From the NCBI GenBank assembly GCA_022340585.1, contig JAJDNS010000037.1, forward strand, positions 4,834 through 68,833: a stretch of DNA of 64,000 bases. The letters are read 5' to 3'. This DNA comes from Acidobacteriota bacterium (lineage in GTDB: Bacteria; Acidobacteriota; Vicinamibacteria; Fen-336). This document shows positions 1,995 through 63,305 of the stretch, one piece after another (the stretch's first letter is position 1; every line of letters begins with the position of its first letter). A program made the translations under genes and the position numbers. The notes under the pieces are model-generated. The model made no database searches, was not told the DNA's origin, and worked only from the letters and a program-made list of their open reading frames with translations.

Positions 1995-2053
1995 TCCCCG
2001 TGAGAGCGGTCGCCCCCGTCGGCGGCTATACTGGCTGCGCGAGGAAGATCCCG

Positions 2054-17959: not shown

Positions 17960-18140
17960 ACCGTGCCCGCACGATCCAGTGCAATTGTCGGGCCGTTCGG
18001 GGGGCCTTGATGAGCAAGCACTTACGGCGAAAGCCATGACCCCGTCTGACCGGATTCCAGACTCTGGATGTGGCGGCCGGAGGCCCGGGCGTGAATAAAG
18101 AGGGATCGATGGGCGGCGGGTGTCGTAATCTCTTGAGGGA

Positions 18141-29643: not shown

Positions 29644-31005
29644 TCAGGAGCCGGACGCGCGGGACAGGTCCCGCTCGTCGAGTCGCCGGCAACCCTCGAG
29701 AAGGATCTGATCGAAGCCTTCCCCGATGGGCTGCCCGTCGACCGAATGGGCGGGTGTGAACTGGAACTGGCCTCGGGGCCAGGTGAGCAGCGTGAACACG
29801 ATCTCTTCCGGCCGGTTGTCGCTACCGTTGGACCGGATGAGGTGCACGCCCCCGGCCCCGACGATCTCGCCGCTTCGGAACGTCACCTTGACCTGCTGGG
29901 GTCCATGTCGGACCAGGAGGGTGCCGGTGAGCTGGTTCAGGTGGCAGACCTGCAGCAGGCCGGCCGCCCCCACGAGCTCGACGCTCCCGCGGAACCCGGT
30001 GCCGGGCTGGGCCCCGGGCCGGAGGTCCTTGTACCGCTTCAGGATCAGCTCGAGTCGGATGACGAGCTCGCGGATCGTGATGGGCTTGACCAGGTAGTCG
30101 TCGGCGCCCAGTTGGAGTCCGGCGTAGCGCTTGTCTGGCTCGTCCCAGTCCGACAGGAAGGCCAGTGGCGTGCGGCGGAGCAGCCCGTGGCTCCGGATGC
30201 GGGCGCACAGGTCGAAGCCGCTCTGGTCGGGCAGGTCGACCTCGGAGAGGATGAGCCAGGGGCGTCGGGCGATGGCCAGCTGGAGGGCCTCCGCCGACGA
30301 CGAGGCCTCGTACACCACGAAGCCGTGCTCGGCCAGCACCCCTCGCACGAAGCGCCGGTACGCCAGATCGGGATCCACCAGGAGCGCGGTGCGGAGGGGC
30401 TTGGGGACGGTCTCGAAGGGCCGGTAGCGAATCCCGTTCGCCCACTCCGTCTCGGTGTCGATGGGAGTCCCTTCCTCGGCCTCCTGCCTCTGCTCGTCTC
30501 GCAGCAGGGCCGGCTCCACCACGTCACGGAACACCGTGTCGAGCCCCTTGACCAGGGCGTCGGGCTTCGAGGCCTTGGGCAGGTAGTCGATCAGCCCGAA
30601 GCGACAGGCCGGGTCGCGTCGGCTGCCATCGCCCCGGGCCCGCAGCAGGAACAGCGGAAACCGGGCGCAGGACGAGTCGCTGTGCAGCGCCCGAAGGACT
30701 GCGTAGCCCTCGGTACCCTGCGGTGGCGCCTCCCGGGGCGTGGGGTCGCCCTGCCGCCGTTGCCAGCGGGGCACGTGCTCGAGGGCGCCGAGGTTGAGAT
30801 CCACGGCCAGCACATCGGCGGCTCCGACCCGGGCGAGCTTCTCCGCGGCGGCGGGGTCGTGAGTGACGACTGCCCAGTAGTCCTCGCGGCGCAGGAGCAA
30901 TTCGGTGGCCTGCCCGCTCGAGGCCTCGCCGTCGACGACCAGAACGCGCCGAGAGACACGACCGTTACTGAGTTGGGGTGTGGGGTGAGTCCTCTCTTCC
31001 CGCAC
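29644..31005 (-). CDS. response regulator with two receiver domains and C-terminal DUF4388 domain
   Basis: REC1 (RVLVVDGEA...VLAVDLNLG) and REC2 (TALLVDPDLAYRRF...WLILSEVDLPDQSGFDL...DYLVKP), then a DUF4388-like domain (SVELVGAAGLLQVCHLNQLTGTLLV). Confidence 0.75.
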   Translation of the reverse strand: MREERTHPTPQLSNGRVSRRVLVVDGEASSGQATELLLRREDYWAVVTHDPAAAEKLARVGAADVLAVDLNLGALEHVPRWQRRQGDPTPREAPPQGTEGYAVLRALHSDSSCARFPLFLLRARGDGSRRDPACRFGLIDYLPKASKPDALVKGLDTVFRDVVEPALLRDEQRQEAEEGTPIDTETEWANGIRYRPFETVPKPLRTALLVDPDLAYRRFVRGVLAEHGFVVYEASSSAEALQLAIARRPWLILSEVDLPDQSGFDLCARIRSHGLLRRTPLAFLSDWDEPDKRYAGLQLGADDYLVKPITIRELVIRLELILKRYKDLRPGAQPGTGFRGSVELVGAAGLLQVCHLNQLTGTLLVRHGPQQVKVTFRSGEIVGAGGVHLIRSNGSDNRPEEIVFTLLTWPRGQFQFTPAHSVDGQPIGEGFDQILLEGCRRLDERDLSRASGS

Positions 31006-47955: not shown

Positions 47956-48001
47956 TTGAGGATGATTTGGGCGGTATGGCCGCCCTTTCTTGTAGCGCTT
48001 A

Positions 48002-48022
48002 TTATGCTCCTCAAGAGCATAA
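48002..48022. promoter_or_regulatory. palindromic operator TTATGCTCCTCAAGAGCATAA (putative NrtR site 2), 14 nt upstream of the nadA start
   Basis: Read directly from the sequence. 21-bp palindrome with the same half-site as site 1. Confidence 0.6.
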
Positions 48023-48035
48023 GGGGAGGCCCAGG

Positions 48036-49073
48036 ATGAGCACGACGCCCCCGACCCCGGCGGGAGAGGAGCCCCGCTACACGCCGGCGGTGGCCCGTCG
48101 CACCGCCGACGTCCTCGAGCGAGTGCGCCGCGTCGTGCCCGAGATCGAGTGGCCGGTCCACGCCCCCTACATCGACGCCATCCGTGAGTGGAAGGCGAAG
48201 CGCAACGCCGTGGTCCTGGCCCACAACTACCAGACCCCGGAGATCTTCCACGGGGTGGCGGACCTCAAGGGCGACTCCCTGGCCCTGGCCCGCATGGCCG
48301 CGGACACCGACGCCGACGTGATCGTGATGGCCGGCGTCCACTTCATGGCGGAGACGGCCAAGATCCTGAGCCCGGAGAAGACGGTCCTCATCCCGGACCT
48401 GGAGGCCGGCTGCTCCCTCGCCGAGTCCATTACCGCCGCCGACGTTCGCCTGCTCCGCGAGCGCTACCCCGGCGCCCCCGTCGTGACCTACGTCAACACC
48501 TCGGCCGCGGTGAAGGCGGAGTCCGACGTGTGCTGCACCTCGGCCAACGCGGTGGAGGTCGTGGAGTCCCTCGAGGCCGACCGGGTCGTCTTCCTGCCCG
48601 ACGAGTACCTGGGGCGCTACGTGGCCTCGAAGACGGATACCGAGATCATCCTCTGGAAGGGCCACTGCGAGGTGCACGAGCGCTTCACCGGGAAGGAGAT
48701 CGAGGCCTACCGCGAGCAGCACCCGGGCATCTCGGTGCTCGCGCACCCGGAGTGCCCACCCGACGTTCTCGCCGCCTCCGATTTCGTGGGATCGACGTCG
48801 GGCCTGATCCAGCACCTGGCGGCCCACCGGCCCCCGCGCGTGGTCCTCATCACGGAGTGCTCCATGAGCGACAACGTGGCGGTGGAGTTCCCGGACACCG
48901 AGTTCATCCGCCCCTGCAACCTGTGCCCCCACATGAAGCGGATCACGCTGCCGAACATCCTCCGCTCGCTGCAGGAGATGGAGCACCGGGTGGAGGTGGA
49001 GCCGGAGGTGGCGGAGCGGGCCCGCGCCGCCGTCGAGCGAATGCTGGAGGTCGGGCGAGGAGAGGGCCGATGA
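48036..49073 (+). CDS. nadA: quinolinate synthase
   Basis: ATG at 48036 within ORF 47967..49073. NadA motifs ([39 protein letters not shown]). Confidence 0.9.
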
Positions 49074-50671
49074 GCGTCCGCCTGCAGGGAATCCGCGACG
49101 TCGACGTCGTGGTGATCGGCGCTGGCGCCGCCGGCCTGAGCGTCGCCCTCGGCCTCGAGGGCCGCGCGGTGGACCTCCTGGCCAAGGGCCCGCTCTCGCG
49201 GACCGGCAACAGCCCCCTGGCCCAGGGCGGGGTGGCCGCCGCCGTCGGCCCCGACGACACCCCCGGGCTCCACGCGGCCGACACCCTGGCCGTCGGGGGC
49301 GCGGTCGGCGATCCCGACACGGTGGCCCGGCTGACGACCGAAGGCCCGCAGCGAATGGCCGACCTCATCGAGCTCGGGGCACGCTTCGACCGTCACGCCG
49401 ACGGCGCCCTCGACCTCGCCCGGGAAGCCGCCCACTCCCGACAGCGGATCCTGCACGCCCGCGACGCGACGGGCGCCGAGATCGTTCGTGCCCTCGGGGA
49501 GGCAGTGGGCCGCGTCGGCGGGCTGACGGTCTTCGAGCGGAGCTTCGCCGTCGACCTCGTGACGGCCGCCGGGCGGCTCGTGGGCGTCCTCGTGCGGCAC
49601 GCCGACGGGACGCTGGTCCTGCACCGTGCCCGCGCCGTGGTCCTGGCGACGGGGGGTATCGGCCAGGTCTACTCGCGCACCACCAACCCGGTCGAGGCCA
49701 CCGGCGACGGGCTCGCCCTGGCCTGGAGGGTCGGGGCGCGGGTCGGTGATGTGGAGTACGTCCAGTTCCACCCCACCGCCCTCGACGTGGGCGAGGACCC
49801 GATGCCTCTCCTGACCGAGGCGCTCCGCGGGGCCGGGGCCCGGCTGGTCGACGAGCACGAGCGCCCCATCTTCGATGTCCCCGGGGGCGAGCTGCAGGCT
49901 CGCGACATCGTCGCCCGGGGGATCTGGGCGGCGCTGGGGCAGGGGCGCCGCCCCCTCCTCGACGCCCGGCAGGCCGTGGGGACGGCCTTCCCGGAGGAAT
50001 TCCCGACCGTCTTCGAGGCCTGCCAGAACCACGGGCTGGATCCCCGCGTCGAGCCCATGCCCGTCGCCCCGGCGGCGCACTACCACATGGGGGGCGTTCT
50101 CGTGGACGGGGACGGGCGCACCTCGGTGCCCGGTCTGTGGGCGGCGGGAGAGGTGGCGTGCACGGGAGTCCACGGTGCCAACCGTCTGGCGAGCAACTCG
50201 CTCCTCGAGGCCCTGGTCTTCGGGTCCCGGGCCGCGCGCTCGGTGGAAGAAGCGCTGGCCCGTGACGCCGATGCCCGTCTGCGTGATCTCCCCGACGACC
50301 TGCCCGTGGTGGCGGAAGCGTCCGCGGGCCGGGCCCAGGTGGCCCGACTGCGTCGGCTGATGTGGGACCGGGCGGGTCTGGTGCGCACGGGCGAGGGGCT
50401 GCGCGATGCTCTCGACGAGATCGATCACCTCCGGAACGGGCTGCCCGAGGGGGTCTCCGAGGCCCGCAACCTCGTCACCGTCGCCCACCTGGTGTCCCGT
50501 GCTGCGCTGGCCCGGCCGGAGAGCCGGGGGGGGCACTTCCGAGCCGACCATCCCGACACCCGGAGCACCTGGGCGCGTCGGCTCGTCCTGAGCCGCAGTG
50601 GCGACCAGGAGCTGCTGGCCTTCGAGCCGATCCGCCGCCCCTCGGCGCCGCGCCACCAGGCCTCGGCATGA
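49070..50671 (+). CDS. nadB: L-aspartate oxidase
   Basis: ATGA overlap with nadA. FAD Rossmann motif [15 protein letters not shown] and succinate-dehydrogenase/fumarate-reductase flavoprotein-like core ([14 protein letters not shown]). Confidence 0.9.
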
Positions 50672-51528
50672 GTGGAGTACCGGTCGCTCCTCTCCCGCCC
50701 CTGCTCTACGAGGAGCGGGTGCGCCGAGCCCTCGCCGAGGACCTGGGGCGGGCGGGGGACGTCACCACCGACGCCACCGTGCCCGCCGACCGGGCCGGCG
50801 AGGCGGCGATCGTCGCCCGAGCTCCGGGGCGGGTGGCCGGCCTCGACGTGGCCCTCTCGGCGTTCCGGGTGCTCGACCCGGCGACGACGACCGAGATCCT
50901 GCGAGCCGACGGGAGCGACGTGGACGGAGCCGCAGTGCTGGCCCGGGTCCGCGCGTCGGCCCGCGCGCTTCTCACCGGGGAGCGGACGGCGCTCAACTTT
51001 CTCGGGCACCTGAGCGGCATCGCCACCGCGACCCGGGACGTCGTCGCGCGCCTCGAGGGTCTGCCCACCAGGGTGGCGTGCACCCGCAAGACGACACCCG
51101 GTCTTCGGACCCTGGAGAAGCACGCGGTGCGACTCGGGGGCGGGGAGAGCCACCGCTATGGTCTCGACGACGCCGTCCTCATCAAGGACAACCACGTGGC
51201 CGTGGCCGGGGGAATCACCGCCGCGGTGGAGCGTGCACGGGCCAGCGTGAGCCACTTGGTCAAGATCGAGCTGGAGGTGGACACCCTGGCCCAGCTCGAC
51301 GAGGCCCTGAGTCTCGGGGTCGACGTGATCCTCCTCGACAACATGGATCTGGAGACCCTGCGCGAGGCGGCACGACGGGCGCGGGGACGGGCGTTGACCG
51401 AGGCCTCCGGAGGCATCCGCCCCGAGGACGTCCGGGCCATCGCCGAGACCGGAGTGGACCTCATCTCCCTCGGCTGGCTCACCCACAGCGCCCCCTCCCT
51501 CGACGTCGCCCTCGACATCTTCTCCTGA
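50668..51528 (+). CDS. nadC: nicotinate-nucleotide pyrophosphorylase (carboxylating)
   Basis: ATGA overlap with nadB. QPRTase motifs (GERTALNFLGHLSGIAT, CTRKTTPGLR, VLIKDNH, ILLDNM, ASGGI). Confidence 0.9.
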   Translation: MSGVPVAPLPPLLYEERVRRALAEDLGRAGDVTTDATVPADRAGEAAIVARAPGRVAGLDVALSAFRVLDPATTTEILRADGSDVDGAAVLARVRASARALLTGERTALNFLGHLSGIATATRDVVARLEGLPTRVACTRKTTPGLRTLEKHAVRLGGGESHRYGLDDAVLIKDNHVAVAGGITAAVERARASVSHLVKIELEVDTLAQLDEALSLGVDVILLDNMDLETLREAARRARGRALTEASGGIRPEDVRAIAETGVDLISLGWLTHSAPSLDVALDIFS

Positions 51529-51712
51529 GCCCGAGGGGCGTTCCCGGGGGCCGGCGAGACGGCGCTCGAGGTGTTGGGCTATCCTGTAGGAAAGACAGCC
51601 GTCAGTTCAGGTCGAGGTGATGCGGGGTTCTTGCGCCGGCCGGAGGTGTCCTCCGGATCCGGTGGTGGGCCCTCGCTGATGGGCTGGGGGGCGACCAGAG
51701 AGGGGAACGTCG

Positions 51713-52663
51713 ATGTCCGACAAGAAGATCATTGCCGTCATGGGGGCCACCGGTGCCCAGGGAGGTGGCCTGGTGCGGGCCATCCTGGACGATCCCAGCG
51801 GTGGGTTCGCGGTGCGAGCCGTCACGAGGAAGGCGAGCTCCGAAAAGGCCCGGGAGCTTGCGAAGCTGGGCGCCGAGGTCGTCGAGGCCGACGTCGACGA
51901 CGTGGAGAGCCTGAAGAAGGCGTTTGCCGGGGCGTATGGGGCCTACTGCGTCACCTTCTTCTGGGAGCACTTCTCGCCGGAGAAGGAGCTCGCCCACATC
52001 CGGGCGATGGCGACGGCGGCAAAGGAGGCCGGCCTGAAGCACGTCGTCTGGTCGACCCTCGAGGACACGCGGCAGTGGGTGCCGCTGACCGACGACCGGA
52101 TGCCCACGCTCATGGAGAAGTACAAGGTGCCGCACTTCGACGCCAAGGGCGAGGGCAACGCCATCTTCACCGAGCTCGGGGTGCCGACGACGTTTCTCCT
52201 GACGTCGTTCTACTGGGACAACTTCATCCACTTCGGGATGGGTCCGAAGAAGGGTCCCGACGGTGTCCTCGCCATCACGATGCCGATGGGTGAGGGCAAG
52301 CTGCCCGGCATCGCCGCCGCCGACATCGGCCGGTCCGCCTACGGCATCTTCAAGAAGGGCCCGGCGCTGGTCGGTCAGACCGTTGGCGTCGCCGGCGAGC
52401 ACCTGACCGGGGCCGAGATGGCCGCTGCCCTCGGACGCGCCCTCGGCCAGGAGATCCGCTACAACGACGTCCCGCCGGAGGTCTATCGCGGGTTCGGCTT
52501 CCCGGGGGCGGAGGACCTCGGCAACATGTTCCAGTTCAAGCGCGACTTCCAGGACGTCTTCTGCGGGGCGCGACCCGTCGACAAGGCCCGGGAGCTCAAC
52601 CCGTCGCTGCAGAGCTTCGAGGCCTGGCTCGCCGACAACAAGGACCGCATCCCCCTCGAGTGA
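51713..52663 (+). CDS. NmrA-family NAD(P)-binding protein
   Basis: N-terminal Rossmann motif IIAVMGATGAQGGGLVRA and NmrA-like architecture over the full 316 aa. Confidence 0.8.
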   Translation: MSDKKIIAVMGATGAQGGGLVRAILDDPSGGFAVRAVTRKASSEKARELAKLGAEVVEADVDDVESLKKAFAGAYGAYCVTFFWEHFSPEKELAHIRAMATAAKEAGLKHVVWSTLEDTRQWVPLTDDRMPTLMEKYKVPHFDAKGEGNAIFTELGVPTTFLLTSFYWDNFIHFGMGPKKGPDGVLAITMPMGEGKLPGIAAADIGRSAYGIFKKGPALVGQTVGVAGEHLTGAEMAAALGRALGQEIRYNDVPPEVYRGFGFPGAEDLGNMFQFKRDFQDVFCGARPVDKARELNPSLQSFEAWLADNKDRIPLE

Positions 52664-52754
52664 CGACGTCCCGAGGGAGGGGGCCGCGCCATCCTTGCCT
52701 CAGACCCCCGACCCTCGGATAGGATCGGGGGCCTGGGGCGAGCGGGAGGCGGTC

Positions 52755-53216
52755 ATGACTCCGGCCGGCGTTACCTTCGGCCACGTGAACATCGTCGCGA
52801 GAGACTGGAAGCGGCTCTCGCGGTTCTACCAGGCGGTCTTCGGGTGCGAGCCGGTGCCGCCGCGCCGCCAGCTGTCCGGGGCCTGGCTGGAGGCGGGTAC
52901 CGGTGTCCCTGGCGCGGCGCTGGAGGGCGAGCATCTCCGGCTTCCCGGCCATGGCCCCGACGGGCCGACCCTCGAGATCTACTCGTACTCGAGGGCCCTC
53001 GACCGGCCGGGGACCGCCGCCAACCGGCTGGGGCTCGGCCACCTCGCCTTCCGCGTTCCCCACGTCGAGGAGGCGCTGGAGCAGGTGCACGCAGAGGGCG
53101 GGCGCGCGCTGGGGGAGGTTGCCTCCGCCCGGGTCCCGGGCAGGGGGCAGCTGACGTTCGTCTACGCGTGTGACCCCGAGAGCAACATCATCGAGCTCCA
53201 GTCCTGGTCCGACTGA
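52755..53216 (+). CDS. VOC (glyoxalase/bleomycin-resistance/dioxygenase) family protein
   Basis: ATG at 52755 within ORF 52695..53216. Two beta-alpha-beta-beta-beta modules (FGHVNIVARD...; LGHLAFRVPHVEEALE...IIELQ). Confidence 0.7.
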   Translation: MTPAGVTFGHVNIVARDWKRLSRFYQAVFGCEPVPPRRQLSGAWLEAGTGVPGAALEGEHLRLPGHGPDGPTLEIYSYSRALDRPGTAANRLGLGHLAFRVPHVEEALEQVHAEGGRALGEVASARVPGRGQLTFVYACDPESNIIELQSWSD

Positions 53217-53315
53217 TCCCCGGAGGATCTGAAGCAAAGAGTCGCCCCCTCTGAGGCAAAGGGCCCATGGAAATTGCTTACTGGAATGGTGGGTAATTAG
53301 GGAGCAGGGGGATGA

Positions 53316-53882
53316 ATGAAGCTCTCGACCCGGGCCCGATACGCGCTTCGAGTGATGCTCGACATCGCGCGGCACGGGGGGCAGGAGACCCCGGTCCCCC
53401 TGGCCGCCGTGGCCACCCGGACGGACCTGTCCCACGGCTATCTCGAGCAGCTCGCCATGGGGCTCCGGCGGGCTCGACTCCTGCGCGGGGTGGCCGGTCG
53501 CAAGGGTGGCTACCTCCTGGGCTCGGAGCCCTCCCAGATCCGGATCGGGACGGTCGTCGAGGCCTCCATCGGTGAGGTCTGTCTCGTCGACTGCGTGAGA
53601 ACCCCTTCTCTGTGCGAGCGGGCGGGCCGCTGCGAGACGCGGGCGCTGTACTGCCTGCTGAACGACCGGATCGAAGAGACCCTCCAGTCCGTGACCCTGG
53701 CCGACCTGATGGACGAGGACTGGCTGGCTGCTCACGGGGGCATCACCCCCGCGGACCTGGCCACGGCGCCCGACGGACCGGATCCGTGCTCCGCGTCGCG
53801 CGGGCCCCGGCGGGGTCGCCCTCGGACCCGCAAGATGCCGGCTGCCGCCGGCGAGACCGCCGAAAGGAGCCCCACGGGATGA
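53316..53882 (+). CDS. Rrf2-family transcriptional regulator (IscR/NsrR-like, three-Cys cluster ligand motif)
   Basis: N-terminal Rrf2 HTH (MKLSTRARYALRVMLDIARHG). Cys motif CLVDCVRTPSLCERAGRC. Extended Arg/Pro-rich C-terminal tail. Confidence 0.8.
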   Translation: MKLSTRARYALRVMLDIARHGGQETPVPLAAVATRTDLSHGYLEQLAMGLRRARLLRGVAGRKGGYLLGSEPSQIRIGTVVEASIGEVCLVDCVRTPSLCERAGRCETRALYCLLNDRIEETLQSVTLADLMDEDWLAAHGGITPADLATAPDGPDPCSASRGPRRGRPRTRKMPAAAGETAERSPTG

Positions 53883-54432: not shown

Positions 54433-55119
54433 ATGGAGCACCATGACCCGAGCACGCTCCTAGCCTCCGTCGAGACGATCCACTGGATCGCCCTCGCCAT
54501 CATGGCCATCGTCTACACCCTGCGCCTCTTCTGGCTGTACCAGTTCCGCAACGGCCGTGAGCGACAGCCCGCCGGCCAGCCCGACAAGACCAACGCCTCG
54601 AAGGGGGCCCTGTACTCCCTGGGCAACGTGCTCATGCCCTGGGCCATGGAGAGCACCCGGGACGGGCTGCCCTTCTATGCCACGTTCCTCGTCTTTCACC
54701 TCGGTGTCGCGGCCGGCATCGGCCTCGCCTTCGTGAGCTCGCTCTACCGGCCCGCGGTAGAGATCCCGGTGGTTGGAGTGACCGTCTTCGCGCTCCTGGC
54801 CGCGGCCTTCGCCATCGGCCTGTACCGGATCGTCCGGCGGTTCACTCTCCCGCACCTCAAGCTGATCAGCTCGCCCGACGACTACTTCGCGGTCGTCATG
54901 CTCACCGGCTGGTTCCTCTCCGGGATGCTCGCCCAGTCCTACTTCCTGGGCTGGCTCCAGAGCGAGCTGCTCCTCGTGGCCTTCCTTCTGTACACGAGCT
55001 TCTTCCTGATCTACGTGCCGTTCTCGAAGATCTCCCACTATCTCTACTACCCGTTCACCCGCTACTGGCTCGGCCGCAGCCTGGGCCACCGGGGCAGCAT
55101 GCCCTACGTCCGCGGGTGA
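54433..55119 (+). CDS. NarI/DsrM/HdrE-like membrane-bound cytochrome b subunit (putative)
   Basis: 228 aa, 5–6 transmembrane helices, with His residues positioned as potential haem ligands (HWIALAIMAIVY, FLVFHLGVAAG, SHYLYYPF). Immediately upstream of the Fe-S/CCG protein, as in DsrMK/HdrDE modules. Confidence 0.6.
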   Translation: MEHHDPSTLLASVETIHWIALAIMAIVYTLRLFWLYQFRNGRERQPAGQPDKTNASKGALYSLGNVLMPWAMESTRDGLPFYATFLVFHLGVAAGIGLAFVSSLYRPAVEIPVVGVTVFALLAAAFAIGLYRIVRRFTLPHLKLISSPDDYFAVVMLTGWFLSGMLAQSYFLGWLQSELLLVAFLLYTSFFLIYVPFSKISHYLYYPFTRYWLGRSLGHRGSMPYVRG

Positions 55120-55129
55120 AGGAGGCAAC

Positions 55130-56929
55130 TTGAGCGAACTTGCCCCGTCTCACAAGGTCGAGAAGATCCTCGAGCAGCTCCCCAGGAAGCTCACCCGGCA
55201 GGTGGTCGGCTCGCTGGTCGGCTGCGTGCACTGCGGGATGTGCCACGACTCCTGCCACTACGCCCTGGCCTTCCCCGACGACCCGAAGATGACCCCGTCC
55301 TACAAGGCGGACCAGCTGCGGAAGATCTTCAAGCAGCACCACGACTGGACGGGCCGGGTCTTTCCGAAGTGGGTCAAGGCCGGATCGCCGATGACCGACG
55401 ACGACCTGGAGGAGCTGAAGGACATCGCCTTCGGGACCTGCACCAACTGCCGCCGCTGCACCTACAACTGCCCCATGGGTGTGGACACCGCGACTCTCAA
55501 CCGCATCATGCGCGGGCTGCTCTCCCGCGTGGGCGTCATGCCCGAAGGCGTGCGGGTGGTGAGCAAGGACCAGTGGGAGATCGGGAACCAGATGGGGGTC
55601 CTCAAGGAGGACTACCTGGACACCCTCGACTGGATGTCCGAGGAGCTGGAGGAGCAGCTCGGGCACGACCGCGCCAGGATCCCGGTGGACAAGAAGGGCG
55701 CGAAGGTGATGTACACCATCAACCCCCGCGAGGCCAAGTACGACCCCCGGACGATCAAGGCCGCCGCCCTCATCTTCTATGCCGCCGGCGAGGACTGGAC
55801 CATGCCCAGCGAAGGCTGGGACCAGACCAACTTCGGCCTGTTCTCCGGTGACGACCAGCTCGGCGGCGTGTGCGGGAAGCGCGTCTACGAGAAGCTCGCC
55901 GAGCTCGGCTCGAAGGAGCTCGTCATCTCCGAGTGCGGCCACGGGTACCGGTCGACCCGCTGCGAGGCCCCGAACTGGGCCGGTGTCGACGTGGACTTCA
56001 CCATGGAGAGCTCGGTCATGACCATGCTCCGCTACGTGAAGGAGGGCCGCATCAAGGTCGACAAGAGCCGGAACAAGGAGCGGGTGACGTTCCACGACTC
56101 GTGTAACAACGCCCGCAGCTGCGGGTTCTACGAGGAGCCGCGGGAGCTGCTGAACCTGGTGGTCAGCGACTTTCAGGAGATGTACCCCAACCGCACGGAG
56201 AACTACTGCTGCACCGGCGGGGGCGGGGCCATGTCGATGGCGGAGTACACGCCCCGCCGTTTGAAGTCCGGCAAGGTCAAGGCCGACCAGATCAGGGCCA
56301 CCGGGGCGAAGGTCGTGGTGACCTCCTGCCACAACTGCGTGGACGGGCTCGGCGACCTCATCAAGCACTACAAGCTCGACTGCGAGGTGAAGCAGCTCGT
56401 GGACCTGGTGGCCGAGGCCCTGGTCCTCGACGAGCTCGAGAAGCCGAAGGCAGAAGCGGCCCCGGCAGAGGTCACGGCCCCGGCTCCGGCCCCGGTCGAG
56501 GCGGCCGAGCCCCGGCCGGAGCCGGCGGCGCCCCTCGGCGGACGGCGGATCCTCGTCGTCGACGACGAGGAGGACGTCCGGACGTTCCTTTCGACGGTCC
56601 TCGAGGACGCCGGGGCCGTGGTTCTGCAGGCCACGGACGGAGACGAGGCCATGGCCGCCATGGCGGCGGAGAAGCCGGACCTCGTCACCCTGGACCTGTC
56701 GATGCCCGGCAAGGATGGTGTCGAGGCCTTCGCCGAGATGCGGAAGCACCCGGGGATCAAGGAGATTCCGGTGTGCGTGGTGACCGGTCACCCGGAGTTT
56801 CGGAAGGTGATCTACGACCGGGCGGTCCCCCCGCCCGAGGGCTACATGGACAAGCCGATCGACGAGGAGGAGTTGGTCTCCAATCTCAAGCGCATCCTCG
56901 ATCTGCGGGAGAAGAAGACCCACCAGTGA
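55130..56929 (+). CDS. HdrD/GlpC/DsrK-like Fe-S protein (two 4Fe-4S ferredoxin motifs plus CCG domains) fused to a C-terminal response-regulator receiver domain
   Basis: CVHCGMCHDSCHY and CTNCRRCTYNCPMG (CxxCxxCxxxC[HP]). CCG-domain cysteines (CGHGYRSTRC, CNNARSC, NYCCTGGGG, SCHNC). Pro/Ala-rich linker, then a full REC domain (RRILVVDDEEDV...DLVTLDLSMPGKDG...GYMDKP). Confidence 0.75.
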   Translation: MSELAPSHKVEKILEQLPRKLTRQVVGSLVGCVHCGMCHDSCHYALAFPDDPKMTPSYKADQLRKIFKQHHDWTGRVFPKWVKAGSPMTDDDLEELKDIAFGTCTNCRRCTYNCPMGVDTATLNRIMRGLLSRVGVMPEGVRVVSKDQWEIGNQMGVLKEDYLDTLDWMSEELEEQLGHDRARIPVDKKGAKVMYTINPREAKYDPRTIKAAALIFYAAGEDWTMPSEGWDQTNFGLFSGDDQLGGVCGKRVYEKLAELGSKELVISECGHGYRSTRCEAPNWAGVDVDFTMESSVMTMLRYVKEGRIKVDKSRNKERVTFHDSCNNARSCGFYEEPRELLNLVVSDFQEMYPNRTENYCCTGGGGAMSMAEYTPRRLKSGKVKADQIRATGAKVVVTSCHNCVDGLGDLIKHYKLDCEVKQLVDLVAEALVLDELEKPKAEAAPAEVTAPAPAPVEAAEPRPEPAAPLGGRRILVVDDEEDVRTFLSTVLEDAGAVVLQATDGDEAMAAMAAEKPDLVTLDLSMPGKDGVEAFAEMRKHPGIKEIPVCVVTGHPEFRKVIYDRAVPPPEGYMDKPIDEEELVSNLKRILDLREKKTHQ

Positions 56930-56963
56930 GGCCGCGCCGTGGCGGAGGCCGCGGGAGAGACAG

Positions 56964-58451
56964 ATGCCGGCTGACAGCGCCGCGCCGCCGGTGGCGAACG
57001 CGGGCCCGGAGGGCCCTTACCGCCAGTACTTCGAGGACATGCCGTGCTACCTGTCCGTCCACGACCGGAGGTTCCGGATCGTCGACGGCAACCGCCGATT
57101 CCACGAGGATTTCGGGGGTCGGATCGGCGAGCCGTGCTACGAGGTCTACAAGGGCCTCGAGGGCGTCTGCCCGGACTGCCCGGTGGAGGCGACCTTCGCC
57201 GACGGAGGGAGCCACAGCAGCGAGCAGACCCTCATCAACAAGCACGGCCGGAAGGTCCCGGTCATGGTCAACACCACCCCCGTCCGCGACGAGGGCGGCA
57301 AGGTGGTGGCGGTCATGGAGATGCACACCGACCTCACCGAGGTGAAGCGCCTCGAGAGCCTGCTTCAGCACAGCCAGGAGCGTCTGGCCCAGCTCTTCGA
57401 GGAGGTGCCCTGCTATGTCACCGTTCAGGGCCCCGACCTCGTGGTGAGTCACGCCAACCGCAAGTTCCGCGAGACATTCGGGGCGGCGGTGGGGAACCAC
57501 TGCTACCGGGTCTACAAGCATCGGGAGGAGCAATGCCTGGTCTGCCCCACCCTGCGGACACTGGCCGACGGCGAGGTGCGCCATCACGAGGAGGTCGTGC
57601 TCTCGGCCGAGGGTGAGAGGATCAACGTCCTCTGCACCACCGCCCCCGTCCACGACGCCGAGGGACGCGTCGAGGGCGCCATCGAGATGTCCGTCGACAT
57701 CACCGAGCTGCGCCGGCTCCAGCCCCAGCTCGCCTCCATCGGGCTCCTGGTGGGCTCCATCTCCCACGGGATCAAGGGCCTCCTGAGCGGGCTGGACGGA
57801 GGCATCTACCTGGTCAACACCGGTCTGCAGAAGGACCGGCCCGAGAGGGTCAAGAAGGGCTGGGACATGGTCCAGCGGAACGTGACCGCGATCCGGAGCA
57901 TGGTCCTGGACATCCTCTACTACGCGAAGGATCGGGAGCTGCTGCTGAGCGACGTGAGCGTCGAGCAGCTCGTCTCCGAGCTGCGGGACGTGATCGGCAA
58001 GAAGGCCAGCGACCAGGGGACCGAGCTCGAGCTGGAGGTCCGCGGCGAGGCGGGCTCGCTCGAGGGCGACTACAAGGCCATCCGCTCCATGCTGGTGAAC
58101 GTCCTGGAGAACTCCCTCGAGGCCTGCCGGAGCGACCAGCAGAAGGACGGGCACCGGGTCCGGCTCGGTGTGTGGCGGACCCCGCCCTGGATGGTCTTCG
58201 AGGTCGAGGACAACGGAATCGGAATGGACCGGGAGACCCGGGAGAAGATCTTCTCCCTGTTCTTCTCGTCCAAGGGCATCAAGGGCACCGGCCTCGGGCT
58301 GTTCATCGCCAACAAGATCGTGGACCGGCACGGTGGCAGCATCGAGGTGGAGTCGGAGCCCGGACGGGGAACCCGCTTCCTCGTGCGTCTGCCCCTGGAG
58401 GCGCGACCGAGCACCCGTCCTCCCGACCAGGAGGTAGCGGAGACGACATGA
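56964..58451 (+). CDS. sensor histidine kinase with two Cys-rich PAS domains
   Basis: Two PAS domains, each with a C-x26/28-C-x10/11-C-x2-C pattern (MPCY...EPCYEVYKGLEGVCPDCP; VPCY...NHCYRVYKHREEQCLVCP). HisKA H-box SISHGIKGL. HATPase_c (DNGIGMD, GTGLGLFIA). Confidence 0.85.
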   Translation: MPADSAAPPVANAGPEGPYRQYFEDMPCYLSVHDRRFRIVDGNRRFHEDFGGRIGEPCYEVYKGLEGVCPDCPVEATFADGGSHSSEQTLINKHGRKVPVMVNTTPVRDEGGKVVAVMEMHTDLTEVKRLESLLQHSQERLAQLFEEVPCYVTVQGPDLVVSHANRKFRETFGAAVGNHCYRVYKHREEQCLVCPTLRTLADGEVRHHEEVVLSAEGERINVLCTTAPVHDAEGRVEGAIEMSVDITELRRLQPQLASIGLLVGSISHGIKGLLSGLDGGIYLVNTGLQKDRPERVKKGWDMVQRNVTAIRSMVLDILYYAKDRELLLSDVSVEQLVSELRDVIGKKASDQGTELELEVRGEAGSLEGDYKAIRSMLVNVLENSLEACRSDQQKDGHRVRLGVWRTPPWMVFEVEDNGIGMDRETREKIFSLFFSSKGIKGTGLGLFIANKIVDRHGGSIEVESEPGRGTRFLVRLPLEARPSTRPPDQEVAETT

Positions 58452-58846
58452 GGATCCTCGTGGTCGACGACGACCCCGACGTCGTCGAGTACCTGTCCTC
58501 CTTCCTCGAAGACGAGGGTTGCGAGGTCGCGTCGGCCGGCGACGAGCGCACGGCACTGGAAGAGGTGGAGCGCTCCACCCCCGACGCCATCCTGATCGAC
58601 GTCATGCTGCCCGGGCGGTCGGGTCTCGACCTCCTCCTCCGCCTGCGTCGTGACCCTCGTTGGACCGAGATTCCCCTCGTCCTCGTCACCGGAGACGACA
58701 GCGTGCTCAAGGACGAATGTCGCTCCTATCTCGAAGCTCATCCGGATGTCAGGGGGCCCGACCGCGTGCTCGGGAAGCCCATGGAACGCGACCTGCTTCT
58801 CTCGGTTCTGAAGGGGGTCGCCGTCGTCAGCACCACCCCGGGATAG
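58448..58846 (+). CDS. single-domain response regulator (CheY-like receiver)
   Basis: ATGA overlap with the upstream histidine kinase. MRILVVDDDPDV...ILIDVMLPGRSG...LVTGDD...GKP receiver motifs. Confidence 0.8.
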   Translation: MRILVVDDDPDVVEYLSSFLEDEGCEVASAGDERTALEEVERSTPDAILIDVMLPGRSGLDLLLRLRRDPRWTEIPLVLVTGDDSVLKDECRSYLEAHPDVRGPDRVLGKPMERDLLLSVLKGVAVVSTTPG

Positions 58847-58931
58847 AGGTTGGACGCCCCTCCCGGTGCTATGCTTGGCGCAAGGGAAGGGGGCGGCCCG
58901 AGTCCCGACTTTCGACCGCCAGGGAGGCGAG

Positions 58932-59330
58932 ATGGCCCAACTCCGCGTGCTCGTCATCGACGACGAGCCTGACCAGACGACCTACCTGTCCACCCTCCTG
59001 CAGGACCAGGGGTGGGAGGCGCGCACCGCGAACTCGGCCGACGAGGGCCTCGCCCTGGCCCGCGAGGAAGTTCCCGACGTGGTCCTCCTCGACGTGATGA
59101 TGCCCGAGCGCGGCGGCCTCAGCACCCTGATCGCCCTGCGCAAGGACGAGAAGACGAAGTCGGTTCCGGTGGTCCTCGTGACCGGGATCCAGGCGGAGCT
59201 CACCCACGACTTCTCCGCCTTCCTGGACCGCTTCAAGAAGCATCACCCGGACGCGTATCTCGAGAAGCCGGTGGACCCCGAGAAGCTCCTGAAGACCCTC
59301 GACGAGGTCTGCAGCCCCGCCGCCCCCTGA
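58932..59330 (+). CDS. single-domain response regulator (CheY-like receiver)
   Basis: ATG at 58932 (MAQLRVLVIDDEPDQ...VLLDVMMPERGG...LVTGIQ...EKP) within ORF 58866..59330. Confidence 0.75.
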   Translation: MAQLRVLVIDDEPDQTTYLSTLLQDQGWEARTANSADEGLALAREEVPDVVLLDVMMPERGGLSTLIALRKDEKTKSVPVVLVTGIQAELTHDFSAFLDRFKKHHPDAYLEKPVDPEKLLKTLDEVCSPAAP

Positions 59331-59548: not shown

Positions 59549-60922
59549 CTATATGCCGTAGGTCTTGATCTTCTCCCAGAGGGTCTTGCGGCTGATGCCG
59601 AGGATCTCGGCGGCGTCGTTGCGGCGGCCGTCGGTGGCGGCGAGGGCGGCCCGAATGGTCTCCATCTCCGCGCGCTCGACCGCCCGCCGCAGTGGCTCGG
59701 CCGAGCGGGGGGACGCGAGTGACGGCGGCAGGGGAGGCGCGTCGCGCAGGCTCGGGGGAAGGTGCTCGGGGGTGATCTGGGACCCGCGGCAGAACACCAC
59801 CGCTCGCTCGATGACGTTGCGGAGCTCGCGCACGTTGCCGGGCCAGGCATGGCCGTCCAGGACCTCCAGGGCGTCGTCCGAGAGGCCCTCGATCTCCTTG
59901 CCGCGCTCGCCGCTGAACTCCCGCAGGAAGGCCTGGGCCAGCAGCGGGATGTCCTCGCGCCGCTCCCGGAGGGGCGGCAGGCGGATCGGGACGGTGTTGA
60001 TGCGGAAGAAGAGGTCTTCGCGGAAGCCGCCCTCGGCGATCCCCTCCTCCAGCGATCGCAGAGACGCCGAGACGAATCGGACGTCGACGTCGATCGGCCG
60101 GTTGGAGCCAAGGCGCTCGATCTGGCGCTCCTGCAGCACGCGGAGCAGCTTGGCCTGAACGGCGAGGGGCAGGTCGCCGATCTCGTCGAGGAAGAGTGTC
60201 CCGCCCGCGGCGGCCTCGAAGCGCCCGATGCGGCGCTGGGTAGCGCCGGTGAAGGCCCCCTTCTCGTACCCGAACAGCTCGGACTCCACCAGGGACTCGG
60301 GCAGGGACGCGCAGCTCACCCGGATGTAGGGCCCGGCCCGACGCCTGGAGTTGTAGTGAATGGCCGAGGCCACCAGCTCCTTCCCGGTCCCGCTGTCGCC
60401 CTGGATCAGCACGCTGGCGTCGGAGTGGGCCACTTCCTGGATGAGCCAGAAGACCTCCTGCATCTTCCTGGACTTGCCAATGATGTTGGAGAACGAGTAG
60501 CGCTCCTCGAGCTGCTCCCGAAGACGGACGTTCTCCTCCTGGAGCTGCCGCCGTGAGCAGACGCTCTCGATGCGAATGAGCAGCTGGGCCATCGAGAATG
60601 GCTTGGTGACGAAGTCGGCCGCTCCCTCGCGCATGGCCGCAACCGCCTTCTCGACGGAGCCATGGGCGGTGATGAGGAGCACCGTGGCGCCCGCGTGAAG
60701 CGCCTTGACCCGGCGCAGAAGCTCCATCCCGTCGAGGGATGGCATCACCAGGTCCGTCACCACGACGTCGTGAAGGTACTGCTCGAAGAGGGCCATGGCC
60801 TTGACGCCGTCGACGGCCACGTCGACGGTCCACCCGTTCTTCCGGAGCGCGTCGGCCATGCTCACCCGGAGCAGGGGCTCGTCCTCGGCGATCAGCAGGC
60901 GGTTGCCACACGGAGCCGTCAT
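59549..60922 (-). CDS. sigma-54-dependent Fis-family response regulator (NtrC-like: REC, AAA+ sigma-54 activator, HTH)
   Basis: REC ([11 protein letters not shown]...[12 protein letters not shown]). AAA+ with Walker [31 protein letters not shown]-terminal Fis HTH ([21 protein letters not shown]). Confidence 0.92.
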
Positions 60923-62415
60923 ACCTCGTCCTCGTCCTCCTGGTCCTCGTCCCTGGGGAAGAGGACGCGGAAGACCGACCCTTCACCCTCGGTGGTCTCC
61001 ACCTCGAGGCCCCCGCCGTGGGCGGTGGCGATGTTGTAGCTCACGGCGAGGCCGAGGCCTGTCCCCTTGCCCACGTCCCGGGTCGTGAAGAAGGGATCGA
61101 AGATCCGCTCGCGGATGGCCTCGGGGATTCCGGAGCCGGTGTCGCCCACCTCGACGACCTCCCACGCCCCCTGCCGCAGTGTGCGCAAGGTCAGCGTCCC
61201 GCCCTCGGGCATCGCCTGCAGCGCGTTGAGAACGAGGTTGAGGAAGAGCTGCTCGACCTGGAAGCGGTCGCCGACGATCCAGGGGTCGCGGGGATCGAGC
61301 TCGAAGCGGGGTTCCACCCCGCTCTTGCGGAGCTGGAACCGCACGAGGTCGATCACCTGCTTGAGGCTCTGGTTCAGCGAGGCCGGCCCGAGCCGCATGG
61401 AGCGAGGCCGCGAGAAGTCCAGGAGGCTGGCGACGGTGCGCTCGATCCGCTTGACCCCGTCGTGGATGAGACCGAGATACTGCTCACGCATCTCCGTGTT
61501 CTCGGGGTCGTCCCGCATGTTCTCGATGCAGGTCAGGACGCCGGCGACCGGGTTGTTGACCTCGTGAGCCACCCCGGCGGCGAGCGTGCCGACCGCGGCC
61601 ATCTTCTCGGTGTGGGCAAGCTGGGACTGCTGCACCTTCTCGCGCTCGCGGTTCTCCGCGAGCTCGTCCATCATGCCGTTGAAGGCCTTCCCCAGCTCTC
61701 CGATCTCGTCGTGGCGTCGCGACGTCGCGCGCACCGCGAGATCCCCGTGGGCCGCCCTCTGCATCACCTGGTGCAGGGCCAGGATCGGCCGGATCAGCCA
61801 CTCCATGGAGATGGCGCTGATCACGGCGTTGACCGCGAGCACCAGCAGCGCGATCACGACGAGGCGCGAAGCCATGAGCTCGATCTCCCGCTCCACCGGC
61901 TCCAGCGAGAAGCCCACCGCGAGGGAGCCCCAGAACTTGGTGGAGATGTGGAGCGGCTCCCGGATCTCGAGGACGCGCTCCCCTCCCTCCTCGATCCGTC
62001 TCTGGGCCGGGGGGGGACGCAGGACCGAGGCCGGATCGAGGGCCCGCTCGAAGGGGCGGCCCACCATCGGCCAGCGGTTGGAGTGGGTCACGATCCCGTC
62101 GGCGTCCGTCACGATGACGTAGAGCATCGCGTCGCGGTTGCTGGCGAGGATCTCGGAGATGTAGTTGTCGGTCAGGCCGGCGCTGGGGGCGCGTCCCAGG
62201 TCCTTGTTCATGAGGGCGTCGGTGATGGGGACCGCGAGGGCGGCGGCCACGCTCCGGGCCCGCCGCTCGATGGCATCGTTCTGCTGCTGGCGCTCGTGGG
62301 CGACGACGAGGAGGGTGACGATACCCATCGTGATCGCGATGGCCGCGTTCGAGAAGAGGAAGATCTTCGGCCGCAGCCCCAGCCTGGGAAGGCCGAGCCG
62401 CTCGGTCAGGGACAC
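60919..62415 (-). CDS. sensor histidine kinase with periplasmic-type sensor region and HAMP domain
   Basis: C-terminal 499 aa of ORF 60919..63234 (GTG at 62415). Two transmembrane helices flank an approximately 150-aa region. HAMP ([35 protein letters not shown]). H-box VAHEVNNPV. HATPase_c ([15 protein letters not shown]). 4-nt overlap with the NtrC-like gene. Confidence 0.8.
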
Positions 62416-63305
62416 TGCAGCTCTCCGCGGGGCTGGGTGAGGGCCGTCGGCCCGAAGACCCGCTCGGCCAGGCGACGCACCATGTCGTAGTCGGCGTCGG
62501 CGGCGATGGTGAAGCCACCGGTCAGCTCGAGATCCCACCGCTCCTCGCTCCGCCGGGGCCGGGCCCTTCCCGGGAAGCGGAGGAGGACGGTGGAGAGGGC
62601 GTCGCGTTCCGACCGGGAGCTGCCCGGTGGCGTCACCCAGGGATAGGCGGGGATGGGTCCGGATCGGGCGAGGCGGCGCAGTCCCCGGTGCAGGAACAGC
62701 TCGCCGATGACGTCGCGGACTCCGCAGGCCTCCACCTCGCCCATGAGCACCGCTCGCGCCGCGCGCTCGTGTTGCCCGAAGTAGTGGCATGTGAAGTCGC
62801 GTCCGGGCTCGAGGCCGGCGTCCAGGAGCATGGCCCGCGGAACGAGGTGCGAGGAGGTGGACAGGGTGTCCCCGAAGCCGATGCGGTGGCCCGCGAGGTC
62901 CTGGAGGCTCTCGAACGGGCTGTCGGATCGCACGAGGACGTCGCTGTAGAAGACATCGCTTCCCTGTGTCTGGAGCCGGAGCAGGGGCTCGGCGCCACAC
63001 CGGGTATGGGCGCGAACATAGCTGAGCGGGCCGAGGTAGGCGAGGGCCACCCGCCCCGTGCACAGGTCGTCCACCGCTTCCTGATAGGAGGCGCTCACCG
63101 CCAGCGCCCACGGCTCCCCGGTCTGCTCGCTCAGGTAGTCGACCAGCGGCTGGTACTTCACGTACATCGAGCGCGGGTTGTAGAAGCTCACCACCCCGAG
63201 CCGGGCGGGCGCGTCTTCGCCAGCCGCCCCCCATCCAGGGAGCGCCCCGAGCAGCGCGGCGAGGGTGAGCAGTCCCAGGCGACTAGGGCGTGGTCGTCCG
63301 TGCAC
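62406..63305 (-). CDS. PhnD/SsuA-type periplasmic substrate-binding protein (phosphonate/phosphite-binding-like), probably signalling partner of the downstream histidine kinase
   Basis: Signal peptide. PBP type-2 fold with PhnD-like motifs (YQPLVDYLSEQTG, VDDLCTGRVALAYLGPLSY, DLAGHRIGFGDTLSTSSHLVP). Its stop overlaps the histidine-kinase start by about 10 nt. Confidence 0.68.
   Translation of the reverse strand: MHGRPRPSRLGLLTLAALLGALPGWGAAGEDAPARLGVVSFYNPRSMYVKYQPLVDYLSEQTGEPWALAVSASYQEAVDDLCTGRVALAYLGPLSYVRAHTRCGAEPLLRLQTQGSDVFYSDVLVRSDSPFESLQDLAGHRIGFGDTLSTSSHLVPRAMLLDAGLEPGRDFTCHYFGQHERAARAVLMGEVEACGVRDVIGELFLHRGLRRLARSGPIPAYPWVTPPGSSRSERDALSTVLLRFPGRARPRRSEERWDLELTGGFTIAADADYDMVRRLAERVFGPTALTQPRGELQCP

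Follow-up and report, generated by a model that had tools for sequence, protein, structure and literature searches.

A conserved gene cassette encoding a DsrK/TmcB/HmcF-like Fe-S protein with a built-in CheY-like receiver in Acidobacteriota and other phyla: a candidate two-component-controlled membrane redox enzyme

We analysed a stretch of 64,000 nt (hereafter called the window) from an Acidobacteriota bacterium (Vicinamibacteria; Fen-336; assembly GCA_022340585.1, contig JAJDNS010000037.1). In a region with 70% G+C it carries seven consecutive genes on the plus strand, whose G+C content at third codon positions (GC3) lies between 0.82 and 0.95 (Table 1). They encode an Rrf2-type regulator, a Macro-domain protein, a membrane protein with NarI fold, an Fe-S/CCG protein fused to a C-terminal CheY-like receiver, a soluble histidine kinase and two stand-alone receivers, RR1 and RR2. 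The fusion protein and the genes accompanying it are the subject of this study. A first-pass annotation of the same DNA let the unit begin at position 54433 with the membrane protein and thereby overlooked the syntenic genes for Rrf2 and Macro; the true start is located about 1.1 kb further upstream. It also counted four genes behind the fusion where there are three, and described these as coupled by ATGA overlaps. Reading the junctions directly from the window sequence, we found such an overlap between the kinase gene and RR1, whereas gaps separate the fusion from the kinase and RR1 from RR2. A scan of the operon for promoters and terminators gave nothing above chance.

Table 1. Genes of the cassette and features of the fusion protein, with positions in the window
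Feature	Position	Strand	Remarks
Rrf2 regulator	53316-53882	+	ATGA overlap with the Macro gene
Macro-domain protein, 183 aa	53879-54430	+	2-nt gap before the cytochrome b gene
NarI-fold membrane protein, 228 aa, HmcE/TmcC-like	54433-55119	+	Five long helices; 10 nt with AGGAGG before the fusion gene
Fe-S/CCG protein with C-terminal receiver, 599 aa	55130-56929	+	TTG start, AGGAGG 5 nt upstream; 34-nt gap to the kinase gene
Two CX2CX2CX3C motifs	55214-55489	+	C32/35/38/42 and C104/107/110/114; two predicted cubane [4Fe-4S] clusters
S-E-C269-G-H271 and one complete CCG motif	55928-56338	+	C325, C360, C361, C400, C403; predicted non-cubane [4Fe-4S] catalytic site
Pro/Ala-rich variable linker	56441-56539	+	About 30 residues between CCG part and receiver
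Fused CheY-like receiver	56540-56899	+	D478/D479, phospho-acceptor D522, T552, switch Y572, K575
Soluble histidine kinase, 495 aa	56964-58451	+	ATGA overlap (58448-58451) with RR1
Stand-alone receiver RR1	58448-58846	+	85-nt gap to RR2
Stand-alone receiver RR2	58932-59330	+	Pfam Response_reg

The fusion gene is an uninterrupted open reading frame (ORF) with a GC3 of 0.95 throughout, and its product indeed combines an Fe-S/CCG part, a Pro/Ala-rich linker and a complete receiver in one polypeptide, as the first-pass annotation had proposed. Pfam supports each of the domains, namely Fer4_8 (40 bits), Fer4_17, CCG (39.5 bits, cut-off 20.6 bits) and Response_reg (80 bits, cut-off 30.2 bits, residues 474-586). 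Residue conservation was scored on 79 homologues of the fusion, 69 of the kinase and 50 of the Rrf2 protein; a close-homologue alignment (A2) was also used. The eight cysteines of the two predicted cubane clusters as well as the five CCG cysteines and C269 are conserved to 99-100% (C269 to 100%), and C269 and H271 are invariant in A2. The linker (residues 438-470), in contrast, has no conserved column, and in the AlphaFold2 (AF2) model the predicted local distance difference test (pLDDT) value is below 50 for residues 438-465.

A genome scan covering one genome per species revealed 357 stretches encoding a relative of the fusion, the best 80 of which were analysed as loci; in addition, the best 120 matches of a protein search were examined. 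Catalytic part and receiver are joined in one protein in all 80 loci and in all 120 protein matches, which excludes the possibility, named by the first-pass annotation as a refutation, that the receiver is a separate ORF. The 120 proteins are 572-623 aa long (one has 544 aa) and 71-92% identical. All of them have the CCG and Response_reg domains, and 119 also have a Fer4-type domain. In the 80 loci the similarity extends from query residues of about 1-23 to 591-599, and the identity of the fusion is 65-91%. The names given to these homologues go no further than 'response regulator' or 'Fe-S oxidoreductase/CheY-like'; automatic annotations already show the domain combination.

All 80 loci stem from metagenome-assembled genomes (MAGs) and belong, as assigned from the record titles, to more than 10 phyla. 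The Acidobacteriota are represented by Thermoanaerobaculia, Ca. Sulfomarinibacteraceae, Holophagae, Vicinamibacterales and Terriglobia; the other phyla include Planctomycetota, Myxococcota, Zixibacteria, Ignavibacteria/Kapaibacteria, Calditrichota, Gemmatimonadota, Elusimicrobia and Thermodesulfobacteriota, among others. An identity of 65-91% across phyla indicates strong constraint, horizontal spread, or both. The nearest relatives of the window are three loci from Acidobacteriota MAGs (L001, L002 and L042; 88-91% identical). No cultured host emerged: the matches bearing a name, whether from the two protein searches, the cluster look-up or the 80 loci, are all MAGs or metagenomes. When a library is clustered at 50% identity, a single full-length sequence (P0122, 58% identical) represents the fusion clade, and the remaining close matches are fragments. 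Beyond the clade, identity reaches 45% at most; these relatives are ordinary proteins of the TmcB/HmcF/DsrK type with about 450 aa, or versions of them fused to NarI.

Cassette membership was determined by tblastn of the window proteins against the 80 loci and by all-against-all clustering of ORFs of at least 90 aa, and both approaches agree. Setting aside shadow ORFs that overlap these same genes, the fusion is present in 80 loci, the membrane protein in 76, the Macro protein, in synteny, in 74, the kinase in 70, receivers in 62 and Rrf2 in 51. The order (Rrf2)-Macro-cytochrome b-fusion-kinase-receiver is fixed; the kinase gene immediately follows the fusion in at least 69 loci, and Rrf2 immediately precedes the cassette in 50-51 of the 80. 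The recurrence of both fusion and synteny, for which the first-pass annotation had suggested a survey, is thus evident in the best 80 of the 357 stretches. Almost all absences are due to contig ends. Exceptions are four loci without free receiver (L049, L054, L063 and L077), in which more than 6 kb are available beyond the kinase, and L067. This locus from an Elusimicrobia MAG has the genes for Macro, cytochrome b and fusion, and no kinase gene in the 5.1 kb following the fusion, being the sole such case among the loci that can be judged. The RR2 orthologue is usually divergent and located upstream of Rrf2 in related Acidobacteriota loci; in the clade of the window it is found behind RR1. When the 80 loci were clustered, neither cytochrome c, DsrC or electron transfer flavoprotein (ETF) nor any ADP-ribosyltransferase or DNA-binding response regulator came up as a conserved part of the cassette.

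In the fused receiver, D478, D479, D522, T552, Y572 and K575 are all conserved. Its AF2 model has a pLDDT above 90, and Foldseek gives a template modelling (TM) score of about 0.9 against receivers. The most conserved stretch is the alpha4-beta5 face (TGHPEFRKVIYDR...PPPEGYMDKP; T-G-H-P-E-F-R...Y.R...P.G-Y..K-P). In receivers this face normally passes on the phosphorylation signal. RR1 and RR2 match Response_reg with 74.6 and 73.4 bits, respectively, and the best NCBIfam match of RR2 is DVU0259_DivK (75 bits). This DVU0259 family, named for DVU0259 of D. vulgaris, ranks first or second for all three receivers of the cassette, with scores below its cut-off. The three are paralogous and have in common the alpha1 motif [FY]LS[TS]xL[EQ]DxG and an extended alpha4, in which the receiver of a neighbouring NtrC protein differs. 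As the specificity between kinases and receivers resides in alpha1, we infer that one kinase serves all three. We also considered that the fused receiver may itself be the thiol substrate of the CCG site via C549, a residue conserved to 96%. This is unlikely: C549 belongs to the central beta4 strand, only three positions ahead of T552, and no cysteine is conserved in the free receivers.

These data bear on the explanation that the two-component genes control only transcription and that the fusion is either an accident with a decayed or structural receiver, or an artefact of assembly or frameshift. Genes beside hmc and tmc in Desulfovibrio do regulate expression. A DNA-binding response regulator is missing from the conserved cassette, however, the catalytic quintet and the switch residue of the receiver are invariant across phyla, and 80 independent assemblies show the fusion as a single ORF, whose GC3 is uniformly high in the window. 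This all but rules out an artefact or a decayed receiver, and we regard the explanation as a whole as very improbable.

The Cys-PAS histidine kinase and the two stand-alone receivers described in the first-pass annotation were confirmed by Pfam as regards their PAS, HATPase_c and Response_reg domains. The soluble kinase contains two PAS folds (PAS_4) and a HATPase_c domain (90.7 bits); it has no hydrophobic segment. Each PAS fold bears four cysteines in the spacing C-x29-C-x10-C-x2-C (C28/58/69/72 and C150/180/191/194). Judged by position, they lie in A-beta, E-alpha and F-alpha and surround the pocket in which PAS domains usually hold a cofactor. These cysteines and H268 are conserved to about 100%. 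A metal or Fe-S site in each PAS fold is plausible from this arrangement. A PDB search with the PAS region gave one weak match, which is uninformative on the cysteine sites.

For the catalytic part of the fusion the best NCBIfam families were HmcF (E 9.5e-98, 327.9 bits), TmcB (2.4e-93, 313.1 bits) and DsrK (1.4e-73, 248.1 bits). Each of these scores is less than two thirds of the equivalog cut-off (750, 735 and 400, respectively). DsrK, HmcF and TmcB have as signature one CCG motif and a conserved cysteine in T/G-E-C-G-H (PMC10861901). The window protein has a single complete five-cysteine CCG motif, with CCT where CCG is expected, while its N-terminal CCG domain is degenerate; the SECGH-type motif is common to the window fusion, a bona fide DsrK (P0142) and a protein close to TmcB (P0160). 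Judged by these sequence features, the catalytic part is a member of the DsrK/TmcB/HmcF superfamily that forms a distinct clade and is not an orthologue of any named enzyme. The module of HdrDE/DsrMK type proposed in the first-pass annotation holds with respect to the DsrK/TmcB/HmcF signature, but not with respect to HdrD, which has two CCG motifs instead of one.

The nearest relative without receiver, P0125 (45% identical; L081, 1322-4081, on a metagenome contig of the Joint Genome Institute (JGI)), is a TmcB-like protein encoded together with a NarI-like gene. At the position of the fused receiver it has a C-terminal DsrC-like domain, and a free DsrC gene follows. The DsrC-like domain is devoid of the usual C-terminal cysteine arm. 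As a proof of DsrC chemistry this case was not accepted and is suggestive only, the cysteine arm being absent and the contig being a single metagenomic one.

The membrane protein found no Pfam match at E<=0.01, including Nitrate_red_gam (PF02665), so that of the domain assignments offered in the first-pass annotation this one failed whereas Fer4_8/Fer4_17, CCG and Response_reg stood. PDB sequence and profile searches did not give a match either. As Pfam and PDB searches were blank, we took the link to NarI from NCBIfam and from the fold comparison. NCBIfam aligns the protein end to end with HmcE (1.5e-16, 60.8 bits, cut-off 275) and TmcC (2.3e-15, 56.7 bits, cut-off 240), both below the cut-offs. 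The protein has the five helices of the NarI fold, and the eight best PDB matches in Foldseek are all NarI, albeit weak (E 0.015-0.04, TM 0.36-0.50). Homologues are named 'nitrate reductase gamma subunit' by JGI, and one of them has PF02665.

Only two histidines are invariant across phyla, H89 at the cytoplasmic end of transmembrane helix TM2, where this helix starts, and H202 behind TM5, within the motif PFSKISHYLYYP. H17 and H219 are conserved to 62% and 75%, respectively, and are invariant or nearly so in closer relatives only; there is no second histidine in TM2 or TM5. With two invariant histidines, the ligation of two haems as in NarI, which needs two histidines in TM2 and two in TM5, is not given. 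Of the NarI-like di-haem cytochrome b proposed in the first-pass annotation the fold hence remains, and the second haem is unsupported. The precedent is EtfD (PDB 9ojn), which has five helices and in which a single bis-His haem b sits at the cytoplasmic side, 4-5 A from a menaquinone site. By analogy the membrane subunit is probably a mono-haem, EtfD-like anchor with one b-haem on the cytoplasmic side.

Mycobacterial EtfD is also the closest solved structure to the fusion, both in sequence (E 1.9e-13) and in the whole-protein Foldseek comparison (5e-13), and the signature residues align with its C581/H583 and C637/672/673/709/712. The module may thus be an electron wire without thiol chemistry, linking a soluble donor or acceptor to menaquinone as EtfD does, with the receiver still regulating it; the partner could be recruited by, or be identical with, the Macro protein. 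EtfD has a single haem, its non-cubane cluster is non-catalytic and has as last ligand the histidine that aligns with H271, and the Macro gene is tightly coupled to the cytochrome b gene. Yet the histidine of the ECGH motif is also found in bona fide DsrK and TmcB-like proteins, so that H271 is uninformative on catalytic competence and was rejected as a marker of a non-catalytic EtfD-like cluster. Among the ligands of the linear [3Fe-4S] cluster of EtfD (C503, C538, C581 and C584), three of the four are absent from the fusion, C269 being the counterpart of C581. Moreover, the cassette has no ETF genes, and the similarity to HmcF, TmcB and DsrK (248-328 bits) by far exceeds that to EtfD (about 48-53 bits). 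We consider a pure electron wire quite improbable.

Two further proteins precede the membrane subunit. The IscR-like Rrf2 regulator is recognised by Pfam (Rrf2, 107.5 bits) and by NCBIfam (rrf2_super, above the cut-off), and its cysteines C93, C100 and C106 are conserved to 100%. About 41-44 nt upstream of the Rrf2 start we detected a palindrome, TCCTA-N9-TAGGA, in 36 of 50 loci (e.g. L010, L031 and L048; range L004-L077), usually centred on a TTGACA box resembling a -35 element. In shuffled controls it occurred 7.5 times on average and 15 times at most. This palindrome is probably an operator of Rrf2. In the clade of the window (window 53217-53315, L001, L002 and L042) it is not apparent. Three loci without Rrf2 (L058, L065 and L075) have instead, about 2.8 kb upstream of the fusion start and on the same strand, a gene for an NtrC-like sigma-54 activator that is 44% identical to the NtrC protein of the window. 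Transcriptional control appears to vary among loci while the core stays fixed.

The Macro protein (Pfam Macro, 93.4 bits) is of the ADP-ribose-binder type. The closest solved structure is TTHA0132 (2dx6, E 1.2e-23), and the protein resembles this uncharacterised protein and macrodomains of the binder type, its loop reading GSGHGSAI. In MacroD enzymes this place is occupied by a GGG-V-D loop, which we take to be catalytic.

Our preferred reading of the cassette is a two-component-controlled membrane redox enzyme: the kinase would phosphorylate D522, and the receiver would thereby gate a menaquinone-linked thiol/disulfide (or trisulfide) oxidoreductase of the DsrK type. The probability we assign to this reading is about 0.45, and it should be taken as tentative. 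In such an enzyme the membrane subunit would exchange electrons with menaquinone through its one b-haem, comparable to EtfD and DsrM. Electrons would pass via the two cubane clusters to the non-cubane cluster and on to a cytoplasmic disulfide, trisulfide or thiol substrate, which would be reduced (or oxidised) and would be encoded outside the cassette. The kinase may sense the cytoplasmic redox state, O2 or NO via metal or Fe-S sites in its PAS pockets and deliver phosphate to D522 of the fused receiver. The alpha4-beta5 face might then dock on the catalytic domain or free it, so that electron flow could be started or stopped with no need for new transcription. The free receivers may act as phosphate sinks or kinase modulators, Rrf2 would add an Fe-S-dependent transcriptional control, and the Macro protein could be a subunit sensing or binding a nucleotide of the ADP-ribose type.

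This reading draws on the domain assignments, the catalytic signature, EtfD as top match of the whole-protein fold comparison, the intact phosphorylation and switch residues of the receiver and the alpha1 motif common to the three receivers, and also on three observations from the loci. As neither a DNA-binding response regulator nor any other conserved gene is found in the 80 loci, the enzyme is the only evident output. As the kinase has eight invariant cysteines of its own in two PAS folds, the enzyme is not needed as a sensor. In the four loci without free receiver, the fused receiver is the sole partner of the kinase within the cassette. In characterised fusions of receivers and enzymes, such as CheB, PleD and RpfG, the receiver regulates the attached enzyme.

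Phosphorylation-gated electron flow and a redox readout feeding a phosphorelay, both offered in the first-pass annotation, are still the two leading models. In the second, the enzyme itself would be the sensor: it would relay the redox state of the menaquinone pool to the soluble kinase by reducing or oxidising the cysteines (CxxC) of its PAS domains. The fused receiver would mainly dock the dimerisation and histidine phosphotransfer (DHp) domain of the kinase at the membrane enzyme and may drain phosphate, and the single-domain receivers would provide the output. Quinone control of the cysteines of ArcB, reportedly described by Malpica et al. in 2004, is a precedent. The kinase suits this role in having eight invariant cysteines, including two CxxC, and no membrane segment, and the long flexible linker suits tethering. 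No other thiol substrate is encoded in the cassette, and the combination of a fused DsrC-like domain with a free DsrC in P0125 mirrors that of fused and free receivers. But the four cysteines around the cofactor pocket of each PAS fold look like a putative metal or Fe-S site rather than a substrate disulfide, and the four lineages without any free receiver would be left without output. A conserved alpha4-beta5 face and switch residues would also be needless for a mere docking tag, and the DsrC-like domain of the sister protein P0125 lacks the cysteine arm. We therefore hold the enzyme acting as sensor to be rather unlikely.

Several points weigh against the phosphorylation-gated enzyme as well. 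Neither DsrC nor another candidate for the thiol substrate is present in the cassette in the 80 loci, and CCG clusters can act as pure electron relays, as they do in EtfD. The Macro gene, equally conserved, is not accounted for by gating, and none of the main models explains it. Quinone binding and the number of haems are predicted from homology, and phosphorylation gating, like the function of every member of the clade, is a prediction from sequence. H268 lies within SISHGIKG in the putative DHp helix, which we call divergent because Pfam HisKA does not detect it. Finally, AF2 places the receiver on the catalytic part without confidence (predicted TM score 0.57, with a disordered linker).

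Among known systems, Tmc and Hmc of Desulfovibrio (TmcBC and HmcEF) are the most similar ones, providing the best-scoring curated families for both subunits and having one CCG motif and the ECGH cysteine, too. Their genes also adjoin those for response regulators, kinases and Rrf2 proteins (rrf1/rrf2, DVU0258-0260-type). According to a preprint, rrf1/rrf2 regulate hmc (bioRxiv 10.1101/2023.11.02.564894, citing Keon 1997). In D. multivorans the Hmc genes, located just downstream of tmcA1, directly adjoin three response regulators, four kinases and a universal stress protein (USP), an arrangement likened by the authors to an operon-like structure of D. vulgaris (PMC5109826). The cassette differs from these systems in several respects. 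Its scores for HmcF (328 vs. 750), TmcB (313 vs. 735) and HmcE (61 vs. 275) are far below the cut-offs, and the fusion is at most 41% identical to non-fused relatives. The periplasmic cytochrome c (TmcA/HmcA), TmcD and HmcBCD are absent according to the clustering of the 80 loci; instead, the cassette has a receiver fused to the catalytic subunit and a Macro protein. Furthermore, it probably has one haem instead of two, and it occurs in phyla other than that of Desulfovibrio.

In DsrMKJOP, electrons pass from menadiol via haem b of DsrM to the non-cubane cluster, and the substrate is the DsrC-trisulfide (PMC10861901). The cassette resembles DsrMK in its NarI-type cytochrome b and in its Fe-S protein, which has the sites for two cubane clusters and a non-cubane CCG cluster as well as the cysteine of the GECGH motif, whereas DsrM is a di-haem protein, DsrK has no receiver, the DsrK score of the window protein is 248 vs. 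400, and there is no dsrC, dsrAB or dsrJOP in window or cassette. EtfD (PDB 9ojn) likewise has five transmembrane helices, and its two cubane clusters, its CCG domains and its one bis-His haem b next to a menaquinone site correspond to what we predict for the cassette. It is, however, a single polypeptide of about 20% identity which has a linear [3Fe-4S] cluster, works with ETF and has no receiver. HdrDE also consists of a membrane cytochrome b and a subunit with two [4Fe-4S] clusters and CCG domains, in which a quinone-like carrier drives disulfide reduction. In HdrD, however, the CCG motif is complete twice and there are two non-cubane clusters, as opposed to one in the fusion, and HdrDE is an archaeal enzyme of methanogens with CoM-S-S-CoB as substrate and without receiver. 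CheB, PleD/WspR and RpfG are comparable in having a CheY-like receiver linked to an enzyme that is gated by phosphorylation; there the receiver is N-terminal and the enzyme soluble and not redox-active, whereas here it is C-terminal on a membrane-associated redox Fe-S subunit. Since at least one defining feature of each fails, the cassette is not Tmc, Hmc, Dsr, HdrDE or EtfD. By comparison, its working mode would likely be similar to DsrMK/TmcBC/HmcEF with an EtfD-like anchor.

That genes for response regulators, kinases and Rrf2 accompany those for Tmc/Hmc is already known. What is new is that the receiver is covalently fused, that a dedicated Cys4-PAS kinase and a Macro protein are partners of the enzyme, that all periplasmic subunits are missing and that the cassette has spread far beyond the sulfate reducers. 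Our literature searches found no description of the cassette or of a receiver fused to a protein of the TmcB/HdrD/CCG/GlpC type, with the older hmc/tmc literature being incompletely covered. This is consistent with the statement in the first-pass annotation that the system is not a described one, although the nearest relatives, Tmc and Hmc, had been missed there. Its caveat that the fusion might turn out to be a common and already characterised family applies in its first half: the family is common, and no characterisation was found in the literature searched.

Directly upstream of Rrf2 and Macro, at 47967-53216 on the plus strand, the window contains nadA-nadB-nadC for the de novo synthesis of NAD, followed by genes for an NmrA-like and a VOC/glyoxalase-like protein. 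The nadA, NmrA-like and VOC proteins were checked against Pfam, and nadB and nadC were named from their translations. That NAD synthesis genes adjoin the gene for an ADP-ribose-binding Macro protein is probably a coincidence; the proximity is not kept in distant loci. On the other side there is a convergent operon (59549-63305, minus strand) with genes for a PhnD-like periplasmic binding protein, a kinase with sCache, HAMP and HisKA domains and a sigma-54 activator of the NtrC type. This operon is common only to the closest relatives (L001, L002 and L042) and therefore lies outside the cassette. Signalling genes are frequent elsewhere in the window, too (1445-3337, 16745-18316, 18141-20903 and 29644-31005), encoding two EAL-domain proteins, one of them with FHA, a Ser/Thr protein kinase of 920 aa and a receiver-DUF4388 protein. 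They are interspersed with the housekeeping genes gcvP, uvrB, thyX, def, fpg and a squalene/phytoene synthase gene. Genes of the dsr, apr and sat groups are absent from the window.

It is possible, though still doubtful, that phosphorylation of the built-in receiver by the kinase is a direct switch for a quinone-linked Fe-S thiol-redox enzyme, acting post-translationally and at the membrane. To our knowledge there is no characterised case of a kinase switching such an enzyme in this way, and our searches revealed none. If phosphorylation gates electron flow, two-component signalling would act directly on a quinone-linked oxidoreductase, which would be a new regulatory principle. The cassette would then be a widespread and horizontally mobile 'redox valve' of uncultured anaerobes, which would also integrate a signal of the ADP-ribose type through the Macro protein. 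As the obligatory partner, the latter represents an unexplained tie between ADP-ribose-type ligands and Fe-S/thiol redox chemistry.

The fusion clade with its dedicated kinase provides a testable hypothesis for the control of the DsrK-like Tmc and Hmc modules. The fusion suggests that the receivers beside tmc and hmc in sulfate reducers act on the enzyme and not on DNA; by a Rosetta-stone argument, the free receivers of the DVU0259 type encoded there would bind TmcB or HmcF if the reading is true. As the cassette is abundant in MAGs from sediment and groundwater, among them those of Acidobacteriota, Zixibacteria, Ignavibacteria, Planctomycetota and Myxococcota, and unusually conserved, it is probably of ecological relevance.

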